A stretch of 64,000 nucleotides of DNA. It comes from an uncultured Verrucomicrobiae bacterium (lineage in GTDB: Bacteria; Verrucomicrobiota; Verrucomicrobiia; Limisphaerales; Palsa-1400). Both the position numbers and the translations under genes were made by a program. Positions 38,474 through 40,682 of this stretch are shown piece by piece. Each line of letters begins with the position of its first letter. Positions within the stretch are counted from its first letter, which is position 1. Below the pieces are notes generated by a model. The model was not told the DNA's origin. It made no database searches and worked only from the letters and a program-made list of their open reading frames with translations. Where the stretch lies: NCBI GenBank assembly GCA_963764165.1, contig CAVXRD010000001.1, positions 288,001-352,000 of the forward strand, read 5' to 3'.

Positions 38474-38504
38474 ACATTTTTCCCGGGCGCAGCCCGCTGT
38501 CCAA

Positions 38505-38530
38505 GGTAGGGACGCCTCGCCGAGGCGTCC
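38505..38530 (+). repeat. REP, left member of the doublet whose right member carries the MITE and IS110
   Basis: GGTAGGGACGCCTCGCCGAGGCGTCC. Confidence 0.88.
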
Positions 38531-38661
38531 GGGGACGTGGCGTTCTACACATGCGACCTCACTTTATAAAAGCACGTATTGCGATCTCGTTGGCGCATAT
38601 TCGCAGAACGTTAGAGGAATTGCTGCGTCAACAAAATGCCACAACCTCGGACGCCTCGGCG

Positions 38662-38801
38662 GAGACTGTCTCAAAACTCAAAAACGGCTTTAAAAAGCAC
38701 CACAAAAACACCCTCGCCGAAAATAAAAATGCGCCATATCGCAAATGAGAGAATCATAGTATTGACACACTTTGAGGATTTTGTAGTTTTGAGACAATCT
38801 C
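38662..38801. mobile_element. 140-bp MITE, copy 2 (inverted relative to copy 1)
   Basis: TIRs GAGACTGTCTCAAAACT / AGTTTTGAGACAATCTC; 4-bp duplication GGCG (38658-38661, 38802-38805) in a REP loop. Confidence 0.92.
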
Positions 38802-38834
38802 GGCGAGGCGTCCCTTGTATCTTCTTCTTATTCT

Positions 38835-39050
38835 TCTTGGTAATCCGATGTCGGATCTCCAAGTTGATGCCGCCTCTGCGCCTGCAGGCGCAGAGGCGGC
38901 GGCGGGTTTGAGAACGTGCGTCCCTTGAAGTCGCTGTCTCGGCAGCGAGCTCCGTAAGGTAGCGTGTTCCATTCCCGCCCATTGTTCCAAACTCGAACCG
39001 TTGCCTGAGCGCGTCTAACAACGCGGCTCGAATTTTACAAGTATGAGTCA
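38835..39050 (+). ncRNA. IS110 bridge RNA (predicted; ends approximate)
   Basis: 5' hairpins; target loop with GCGTCCCT (38918-38925) and TAAGGTAG (38955-38962); donor loop with ACCGTTGC (38997-39004) and TACAAG (39036-39041). Confidence 0.85.
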
Positions 39051-39987
39051 GACCAATTCGCCTTCCATTCTCTTCGTCGGCCTCGACGTTGCCAAGTCCT
39101 CTTTGCAGCTTCACCTGGCCGCTCAATCCCATGCCCTCTCCAATGACGCCAAAGGCCATCAAAAATTGATCGGCCTCTTAAAGTCTCATCCAAGCGCCCA
39201 AGTGGTCTGCGAAGCCACCGGCGGCTACGAGCAGCCTGTGCTGGCCGCTCTCCATGAAGCCGCCATCCCTCTGAGCCTGGTCGAAGCCGGACGGGTCCGT
39301 CACTTCGCCAAAGCCAAAGGCAAGCGCGCCAAGTCCGATCCCATCGATGCTGCCGTGCTCTCCGCTTACGGAGCCGCCCTCCAGCCCGCTCCCACGCCCC
39401 AGGCCTCTCCCACCCAGCAGCAATTGACTCAACTGACAAGGCGCCGCCGCCAAGTGGTTGAACAGCTGGTCGTCGAACGCAATCACGCAGAACATTATGC
39501 CGACAGCTTTTCCCAAAAACAGTCCCGCCAGATCATCGCTCTGCTGGAAAAACAAATCGCCCAGTGCGAGCGGGAAATTGCCTCGCTCATGGACAAGGAC
39601 GCCGACTTGAAGAAAAAAGCCCAGCGCCTGCAGACCATCCCCGGCGTCGGCTCCGTCACCGCCGTTTGCGTCCTGGCTGAAATGCCCGAACTGGGCACTC
39701 TCGAGGATGGCTCCTGCGCCGCCTTGGCTGGCCTGGCCCCTTACAACAGCGATAGCGGCCAACAGTCCGACCAGCGCCACATCGGCGGCGGCCGGGCCGG
39801 CATCCGCCGAGCCCTCTACATGGCCGCCCTAAGCGCCGTTCGCTGCGACCGCATTCTCAAAGAGTTCTATTTGCGATTGCGGAATAACGGCAAAAAACCA
39901 AAGGTCGCCCTCACCGCCGCCATGCGAAAGCTTATCCTCCTTATGAACCGATTGCTGAAAAATCCCAATTTCCAGCTTGCCAGTTAA
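39043..39987 (+). CDS. IS110-family DEDD recombinase/transposase, 314 aa
   Basis: GLDVAK, CEATGGYE, KSDPIDA (DEDD), IPGVG, GLAP..SDSG serine motif, ALYMAAL, AAMRKL. Confidence 0.96.
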   Translation: MSQTNSPSILFVGLDVAKSSLQLHLAAQSHALSNDAKGHQKLIGLLKSHPSAQVVCEATGGYEQPVLAALHEAAIPLSLVEAGRVRHFAKAKGKRAKSDPIDAAVLSAYGAALQPAPTPQASPTQQQLTQLTRRRRQVVEQLVVERNHAEHYADSFSQKQSRQIIALLEKQIAQCEREIASLMDKDADLKKKAQRLQTIPGVGSVTAVCVLAEMPELGTLEDGSCAALAGLAPYNSDSGQQSDQRHIGGGRAGIRRALYMAALSAVRCDRILKEFYLRLRNNGKKPKVALTAAMRKLILLMNRLLKNPNFQLAS

Positions 39988-40127
39988 CACCGTTGCTACC
40001 TTAGAGTGGCGCCTTTGGCGCGAGATTATTCGTAATTGTATCGCAACGGATATTTTGGCGTGAGCCATTTCAACGCCAAGTTGCAAGCCAAGTGACAAAC
40101 GGCGCTTAATCGTATAAGCTTTTTCGT

Positions 40128-40352
40128 GTGAGTACCGTCACAGAAATTATCGAAGCGGTGCAGAAATTGCCGGAAGGTGAAAAAGCGGAATTTCTCGACC
40201 GCCTGCGCGAAATTGATTTCGAGGACGCTTGGGATCGGCGCATTGAAGCTGACGCCAAGGCCGGACGGCTGGATGCGATTTGGCAGGAGGCTCTCAAGGA
40301 CATAAAAACCGGGCACACAAAACCGCTCGATGAAGTCATTAACGACTCCTAG
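40128..40352 (+). CDS. Antitoxin-like small protein
   Basis: STVTEIIEAVQKLP, WDRRIEADAKAGRLD; overlaps toxin pseudogene. Confidence 0.75.
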   Translation: MSTVTEIIEAVQKLPEGEKAEFLDRLREIDFEDAWDRRIEADAKAGRLDAIWQEALKDIKTGHTKPLDEVINDS

Positions 40353-40586
40353 CTTCTGGAAGGCGTATCAGGCGCTCTCGACGGATGTTAAGGCTCAAGC
40401 ATGAAAGGCTTACCGACTCTGGCGCACCAATCCGCGCCATCCCTCGCTTCGATTTGAACCAAAAGGGAAATATTGGAGCGTCCGTATCACGCGAGGCTGG
40501 CGTGCGCTCGCAAGTGAGCGTGAAGGAGTGTTATATTGGTTTTGGATCGGCCCACGGATGAATATGAGCGACTACTGAAATCGTGA
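40330..40586 (+). pseudogene. ParE/RelE-like toxin pseudogene
   Basis: MKSLTTPSFWKAY...QA*KAYRLWRTNPRHPSLRF...WSVRITRGWRAL...WFWIG; in-frame TGA at 40402 plus frameshift near 40552. Confidence 0.8.
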
Positions 40587-40682
40587 TACATATAGAACGT
40601 TTCACACGGTTGACAATTATATGCCTTCTTTCAGTTGCGGGGCGGCGTATCACGCAGCACGGCGTTGAAATGATCCGGCTCG

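Follow-up and report, generated by a model that had tools for sequence, protein, structure and literature searches.

An IS621-type IS110 element in a REP-like repeat, with a perfectly palindromic stem-loop and a donor loop that runs into the recombinase start codon

Introduction

The solved structure nearest to the recombinase described here is that of IS621 from E. coli (E 6.8e-36), a system reported in three studies (Durrant 2024, PMC11208160; Hiraizumi 2024, PMC11208158; Hiraizumi 2026, PMC13626964). In the portions of these reports available to us, IS621 is described as an element with a DEDD and serine recombinase, a CT core, a bridge RNA encoded in the left end, a REP target and a promoter formed at the circle junction. 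Its RNA has a set order of guides, a linker register, a split right donor guide and handshake guides. All of these traits, together with the right donor, recur in the element reported here, the junction promoter as a prediction. The left target guide of IS621 reads seven bases and CT, and its right one CT and two bases, a guide whose extension to CT and five bases has already been described (PMC11208160). Its handshake guides form one pair before strand exchange and three after (PMC13626964). The RNA's 5′ stem-loop is a 28-nt quasi-palindrome with a GGCC centre. Its role was left unexplained by the structural work, in which two loops from two RNAs lie ∼80 Å apart and dimers of complexes are seen (Hiraizumi 2024, PMC11208158). 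Read-through transcripts of IS621 also work as guides (PMC13626964).

ISCro4/IS622 is the next nearest structure (PDB 9T56, E 1.6e-34). It belongs to the same family as our element and shows the same RNA layout; it is 88% identical to IS621 and has been tested in human cells (Perry 2025, 10.1101/2025.05.14.653916). Our element is distant from it, and is known from its sequence alone. The available text of the same study reports a product from 18 of the 72 orthologs screened, and donor-donor complexes as a cause of off-target events. ISPpu10 of Pseudomonas putida is likewise an IS110 element aimed at an abundant REP, and a hairpin 5′ of its target boosts recombination, as far as the accessible part of that report goes (10.64898/2026.03.19.712850). 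REP-targeting IS110 elements with readable guides are already known, and 32,190 guide RNAs of this family are listed as predicted in the source consulted.

The window analysed here is a stretch of 64,000 nucleotides from an uncultured Verrucomicrobiae bacterium. The IS110 element that it contains is in itself one more readable ortholog, whose mechanism is known. It is a variant by the features of its clade, which matter more, the most unusual being a palindrome in the bridge RNA. These features make the open question of bridge RNA assembly directly testable.

Results

Two identical copies at the edge of a REP-like repeat

The element, an IS110 member of IS621 type, occupies 38814-39997 of the window (1,184 bp), with CT at both ends. 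The genome (7.0 Mb in 5 contigs) holds exactly two copies, 100% identical over the 1,184 bp, at C1:326814-327997 and C2:1264210-1263027. Copy 1, the one in the window, is positioned between genes, with PSCyt/PSD1/DUF1501 genes nearby. Copy 2 has the same ends in different flanks, which fixes the boundaries independently, and the insertion point of both copies is the CT found after GGCGTCC and before ACCT. Features of the locus are collected in Table 1.

Table 1. Features of the element and of its insertion site (positions in the window)
Feature	Position	Strand	Basis or remark
REP-like copy upstream, in inverted orientation to the target copy	38503..38530	-	inverted repeat I4, 17 nt, 100%
168-bp repeat (REP-like hairpin with internal insert), 3′ end is the target	38648..38815	+	21 other genomic matches give empty sites
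Left target, the 6 nt that the guide reads; G38807 lies outside	38808..38813	+	guide-flank covariation
Left CT core, element start	38814..38815	+	two copies, empty sites
Right donor, 5 nt	38816..38820	+	clade comparison
-10 box of predicted circle-junction promoter, TATCTT	38818..38823	+	RNA start inferred near 38830
Extra 5′ hairpin H1	38832..38867	+	in homologs: RNA-type loops, 12% G-U pairs
Perfect 32-bp palindrome, self-complementary centre TGCA (38883-86)	38869..38900	+	position of the IS621 5′ stem-loop; candidate RNA-RNA dimerisation element
Target-binding loop	38901..38979	+	fold and covariation; arms 38901-06 / 38974-79
Left target guide, 6 nt + core	38918..38925	+	covariation
Inner hairpin of target loop, longer than in relatives	38927..38953	+	A-C at 38928/38952
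Right target guide, core + 5 nt; T38955 is a linker base	38956..38962	+	covariation; IS621 register
Target-loop handshake guide CG	38963..38964	+	after strand exchange its C pairs with donor position 7
Donor-binding loop, closing stems use recombinase codons 2-5	38981..39057	+	fold and covariation
Left donor guide, 7 nt + C	38997..39004	+	match to donor
Right donor guide, split into 39032-33 and 39037-41 around three looped-out bases	39032..39041	+	IS621 pattern
Donor-loop handshake guide, ending on the A of the start codon	39042..39043	+	homolog comparison
IS110 recombinase, 314 aa	39043..39987	+	D15, E57, D99, D102, S238 align with IS621 D11, E60, D102, D105, S241
-35 box TTGCCA of predicted promoter, inside last codons	39977..39982	+	17 nt from the -10 box once circularised
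Left donor; stop-to-core distance 8 nt	39989..39995	+	sequence
Right CT core, element end	39996..39997	+	two copies
Right target, 5 nt	39998..40002	+	guide-flank covariation

Copy 1 lies at the 3′ end of a 168-bp repeat that has 21 other matches in the genome. All 14 matches that align up to the core read on as one CT and then ACC; the remaining 7 run in reverse, are incomplete or carry a deletion at the core. Since 14 of 14 paralogous sites hold a single CT, the empty site is fixed directly. The first-pass annotation of this DNA had bounded the element by the two CTs, which the identical second copy and the 14 empty sites now confirm; copy 2 shares ends and repeat core with copy 1, as that annotation would have other copies do. 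The element is thus flanked by a short core, present once in the empty site, and has no long terminal inverted repeats. Its left end is long (227 nt from core to start codon) and its right end short (8 nt from stop to core), as in the IS110 group and not in IS1111.

The genome has 267 sites with the 11-nt word that surrounds the core, 2 of them filled, and a 26-nt hairpin repeat is found in 182 exact copies. Close pairs of the repeat take one inverted arrangement in 67 cases out of 73. The full ACCTTA is present at only 19 of 269 repeat sites, and all five right-target bases are matched at 117 of the 269; copy 2 itself continues as CT-ACCTC, which matches 4 of the 5. None of the 10 matches to PF01797 in the genome (Y1/RAYT transposases) had the exact 11-nt word within 1.2 kb. 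The target had been annotated as a REP: its abundance, with 267 sites, and its inverted pairs agree with this, but none of the PF01797 matches is flanked by its exact word, and we therefore call it REP-like.

At 38648-38815, the tip of the REP-like hairpin holds an insert of ∼145 bp with inverted ends of its own. This insert has 22 genomic matches, in both orientations relative to the repeat, and looks like a mini-element aimed at the same REP-like repeat.

A hairpin like the one next to the ISPpu10 target is present at copy 2 and absent at copy 1. Among the homologs, hairpins were not enriched in the left flank of the target (5 of 74 sites with z < -2), and a conserved target hairpin of the ISPpu10 type was rejected.

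Target guides follow the insertion site

The guide, arm and palindrome sequences listed by the first-pass annotation are all present in the window where it had placed them. Three or four of the four guide words were found together in 0 of 20,000 dinucleotide shuffles of the left end, and two in 36. The segment 38814-39050 folds with z = -8.35, and 0 of 200 shuffles were as low. For comparison across homologs, 126 of 152 loci were kept, the 26 others being dropped for low identity or for want of a donor-guide anchor. In the alignment of the RNA structure, 96.6% of cells are paired, and 33 of 49 pairs changed on both sides. None of 500 shuffles was as good, a test inflated by relatedness; slid controls gave 31-48% paired.

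Both ends and the loop were recovered at 99 of the 126 loci (27 dropped), of which 96 were distinct and 85 at least 50% identical. The target loop was located by rules on structure only, without use of the target sequence. At least L022, L072 and L076 are still misparsed; L072 and L076 remain among the 85 pairs, so that match rates can only be lowered. Over these 85 element-site pairs (55 distinct guide pairs), guide and flank matched at rates of 0.48-0.81 for left positions -6 to -1, against 0.26-0.48 when permuted, and of 0.95-0.69 for right positions +1 to +5, against 0.28-0.35. A match as high was reached in at most 1 of 2,000 permutations, a count that overstates significance because kin are not independent. 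Position -7 did not covary with the flank (0.17 versus 0.23 permuted), and position +6 matched no better than permuted (0.26 versus 0.24). Matches exceed the controls at -6 to -1 and +1 to +5 only, and the word read is therefore six bases, CT and five bases.

On both sides this is shorter than was first annotated. The left target had been given as the seven bases GGCGTCC and CT, which is the IS621 format; the guide here reads six and CT. The right-target match had been counted as 8 nt and is 7 nt instead, since T38955 falls at the position of the IS621 linker U73 and matches the flanks no better than control. On this right side, CT and five bases is the natural state, as compared to CT and two in IS621. 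The IS621-like guide order and the CT core of the first-pass annotation are well borne out, the guides changing together with the insertion sites in homologs, and the left end has the fold and covariation expected of it.

The left guide would fit better if shifted by one base in 13 of the 85 pairs. In L018, L051, L085, L088 and L052 the shifted guide is the best one and the loop length is the same, which suggests that the register of the left target guide is flexible. This guide is 8 nt long in the clade, and 9 nt in most members below 50% identity, a subfamily difference and not a family criterion.

In the target-loop handshake, exchange leaves position 81 paired with donor position 7 in 65 of 67 distinct cases. 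No signal was found for position 82 avoiding the cognate target base (12 of 58, versus 10.4 expected). A search of Rfam gave 4 weak matches, far below gathering scores and all on the palindrome, and no bridge-RNA family was matched.

One homolog, L004 (G080:C9), has an intact recombinase and donor loop, with the palindrome and the entire target loop deleted. It is, by its sequence, a natural donor-loop-only element.

Donor guides, handshake and state of this copy

The right donor guide had been read as one word at 39036-41. Its part at 39037-41 stands; the guide as a whole is split, with 39032-33 as its other part. Among 45 distinct tails, 43 retain the AT, and 28 have the T before ACAAG. Across the clade the donor hardly varies. 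Where the left donor does differ, in the ACAG group and in L018, its guide has changed with it; variants are few, and donor covariation is based on these two changes. The donor specificity ascribed to the element is its own in one sense only: 3 of 14 bases differ from IS621, but the donor is the consensus of the entire clade. The donor word of the clade is absent from the examined part of the Durrant covariation alignment, where gaps may hide a match.

The handshake bases of the element make two Watson-Crick pairs before exchange and one after. This balance is the reverse of that in IS621, and insertion may therefore be weak. A weakened or recently dead copy, which moved once and whose RNA is now poor, would be in line with this handshake, with the A-C found at 38928/38952, where 47 of 49 rows have a C-G stem pair, and with the presence of only 2 copies in the genome. 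Such a state is nevertheless improbable. The same two-before, one-after pattern is common to 10 of 39 distinct close cases, and the two copies are identical over 1,184 bp, weak traits included, so the element most likely moved with them.

We conclude that this is very probably a recently mobile IS110 element of IS621 type, with the core mechanism as in IS621. Sequence comparison shows two identical copies, exact CT ends, an intact DEDD/serine recombinase, and four guides that track targets and donors across homologs.

Recombinase and clade

The recombinase ORF had been described as intact, with 314 aa, and it does carry the DEDD and serine residues. It contains the Pfam domains PF01548 and PF02371, and scores 208.7 bits with NCBIfam NF033542 (cut-off 140). 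The catalytic residues are unchanged across 39 sequences. The protein belongs to a large clade: among 8,000 candidates that were scored, E 1e-60 was reached by 3,013, the best being 71-73% identical. Matches were found in 66 of 301 genomes of the order (E 0.001), and in 39 of 401 genomes of the class (E 1e-60).

A donor loop over the start codon and a predicted junction promoter

The first-pass annotation placed the guide RNA in a non-coding left end. This does not hold for the donor loop, which runs into the start codon of the recombinase and into codons 2-5, the 3′ side of its closing stems. Three traits here are unlike IS621, namely this overlap, the position of the -35 box inside the gene and the 8-nt right end. 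The donor-loop ATG opens the full ORF in 52 of 55 distinct elements (at least 57% identity), and no other ATG, GTG or TTG precedes the first catalytic motif in 46 of the 52. In the group at 50-57% identity, a second in-frame ATG follows and some members are without the first, which means that the overlap is not universal. More distant members have a purine-rich GGAG stretch on the same donor-loop arm, probably a ribosome-binding site.

With start codon and codons 2-5 inside the donor loop, a single transcript would be both guide RNA and mRNA, and translation should be blocked when the loop folds or the recombinase binds; we incline, with some reserve, to this reading. The overlap would be a simple explanation for one transcript acting as mRNA and guide. 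The bridge-RNA papers checked for such an overlap contain no mention of it in their accessible parts.

A sigma-70-like promoter is predicted to form at the circle junction (Table 1). Of 52 full ORFs, 50 have CTT as their third-last codon, followed by GC in 49 and by GA in 1; in the ORF bodies, CTT accounts for 128 of 2,045 leucine codons. The distance from stop to core is 8 nt in 50 of the 52. A first test of the -35 box was weak taken alone, 5 of the 6 consensus bases being reached at 30 of 88 junctions. A promoter scan of the linear window found none on the + strand, as expected because the predicted promoter is split between the ends. The sequencing runs listed with DNA of this genome were 5 DNA runs, with small shares, and no RNA run; contigs from 4 of them gave only pieces of distant relatives and no junction joint, and were uninformative.

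By analogy with IS621, low read-through transcription would give excision. The circle would join the -35 box in the last codons to the -10 box in the left end, and an RNA of ∼225 nt (about 38830-39057) would be made from the joined ends. Recombinase dimers on target and donor loops would then insert the circle, by recombination, into the CT that borders a REP-like repeat, and insertions would thus stay in repeats. One step, proposed for the clade specifically, would be a block of translation at the donor loop, by its folding or by bound recombinase.

A palindromic stem-loop that may pair two bridge RNAs

The 32-bp palindrome noted in the first-pass annotation is exact in the window and conserved in the clade, where it is near-perfect: at a fixed distance from the target loop, at least 13 of its 16 pairs are symmetric in 76 of 88 distinct homolog windows, and all 16 in 45 of the 88. 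The other 12 windows are truncated, indel-bearing, decayed or without palindrome; it is absent from L129, L131, L140, L153 and L154. Each of the 14 stem pairs shows variation in the arms, with compensatory changes. The palindrome lies ∼50 bp from the donor junction, and no more than a base or two separates the target loop from the start of the donor loop. Hairpin H1, on the 5′ side, is an addition relative to IS621. In a 44-row part of the Durrant alignment, scored by eye, we found 5 perfect or near-perfect palindromes of 28-30 nt, 2 degenerate ones and ∼5 long stems without symmetric centre, and further palindrome centres seen elsewhere in those data, as far as examined, are GCGC, ATAT and TGCA. 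The trait is, on these sequences, recurrent but not universal.

Perfect palindromes of 32 bp number 5 in the 7.0-Mb genome, of which 2 are in this element. The three others, considered as a second IS110, were rejected as such: they belong to a 265-bp non-coding repeat (G000 C2:2574821-2575086 and 11 other places), whose 32-bp hairpin is perfect in 3 of the 12 copies.

The central four bases, which cannot pair within the hairpin, are self-complementary in 74 of 76 cases. Three further hairpins in these RNAs gave 0 of 91, 1 of 75 and 1 of 78, and long 4-nt-loop hairpins elsewhere in the genome 5 of 64. The two exceptions, L001 and L007, both have broken ORFs. The four centres in use, TGCA, GGCC, CATG and TTAA, interconvert only via double changes; there are 12 such switches on a quick tree of 84 proteins that leaves out 42 of the 126 loci, and at least 3 are forced by well-supported branches. 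The length is sharp as well, pair 16 being Watson-Crick in 61 of 76 and pair 17 in 4 of 76. With a rise of 2.6-2.8 Å per bp for A-form RNA, a 32-bp helix measures ∼85-90 Å. This is close to the gap between loops in the published IS621 structure (PMC11208158), and the IS621 loop too has a self-complementary centre.

These observations make us favour, tentatively, a dimerisation of two bridge RNAs via the self-complementary loop, leading to a 32-bp duplex that would space the target loop of one RNA from the partner's donor loop. Palindromic RNA dimer signals, among them the dimerisation hairpins of retroviruses (HIV-1 DIS), in which, in the sources consulted, a self-complementary loop leads to an extended duplex, offer an analogy only: here the loop is 4 nt, all 32 nt are palindromic, there is no homology, and dimerisation is a candidate. 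Several points weigh against it. The hairpin, at -32 kcal/mol, has to open. The computed gain upon dimerisation (-16.9 for the palindrome) is unspecific, H1 gaining -11.4, and free energy was rejected as a support since other hairpins also gain. In the parts of the reports available, the 5′ stem-loop of IS621/IS622 is disordered and nearly dispensable, and split RNAs do better (10.1101/2025.05.14.653916, PMC11208158). The palindrome is missing or damaged in 12 of the 88 windows. Finally, G-U pairs are rare in the palindrome (13 of 1,216 positions, with 6 G-U versus 7 A-C in pairs 1-15), which is unexpected for a role purely at the RNA level.

This last point speaks for the chief rival, a role of the palindrome in DNA or in both strands, be it as a cruciform in the supercoiled circle, as a sense and antisense hairpin, or through RNA pairing with either DNA strand. 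G-U pairs near absent and A-C deviations equally frequent point to a strand-symmetric constraint, given that other RNA stems are rich in G-U (152 of 1,275 in H1, and many in the target-loop stem); the proximity to the donor junction fits too. We nevertheless find such a role rather unlikely. A cruciform needs no innermost pairing, yet the two innermost bases are complementary in 76 of 76; variation at every arm pair argues against sequence-specific protein binding; and the position is that of the IS621 5′ stem-loop, reported to affect RNA binding in vitro (PMC11208158, available part).

A perfect duplex of 32 bp suits enzymes of the RNase III type. The palindrome could accordingly serve as a concentration-dependent dsRNA substrate, cleaved to trim the guide from the mRNA or to limit expression, and the overlap of guide and mRNA does call for some processing or control. 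A strict length is not obviously required for this, and we consider it unlikely. Least probable is an ordinary hairpin with a functionless symmetric centre, kept perfect by template-switch repair between its arms: this would account for the missing wobble pairs, and the unrelated 265-bp repeat has its perfect 32-bp palindrome in 3 copies, but that repeat does not keep the centre (of 12 copies, 3 are self-complementary, 4 are not and 5 could not be parsed), the hairpins next to the palindrome have not become symmetric, and the centre is lost in broken elements only.

Returning to dimerisation of the RNAs, the palindrome duplex would, in this clade, hold the target loop of one RNA beside the donor loop of the other. 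A broader and more speculative proposal is that a palindrome of 28-32 bp pairs two RNAs, its length being set to the gap between target and donor loops, and that the working unit is a pre-assembled RNA dimer, with a donor loop that hides the start codon and a recombinase that switches the transcript from mRNA to guide. A perfectly palindromic stem-loop is a cheap way to ask whether the stem-loop pairs two RNAs. If it does, engineered RNA pairs with mutually complementary centres could favour target-donor over donor-donor complexes. In the literature reached, mostly open papers, we found no description of the symmetric centre, the shortened left guide or the start-codon overlap, and an earlier one is possible.

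Related loci and neighbouring sequences

Two other, distant IS110-like genes are present in the same genome, L160 (G000:C1) and L163 (G000:C2). The right end of L163 is long and structured-looking, as in the IS1111 group. A long palindrome was sought at both genes and was found at neither.

L001, a relative with 66% identity and a frameshift, comes from an assembly under the label Bifidobacteriaceae and is possibly misbinned or transferred. Its guide and right flank do not agree. To its left, L065 is flanked by what resembles a right end from another IS110 element whose left donor differs, and L065 may sit at the end of a related element.

Downstream of copy 1, at 40128-40590, an ORF of 74 aa overlaps a broken ORF (internal stop and frameshift). 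No family match was found for this pair, which we take to resemble a type II toxin-antitoxin pair.
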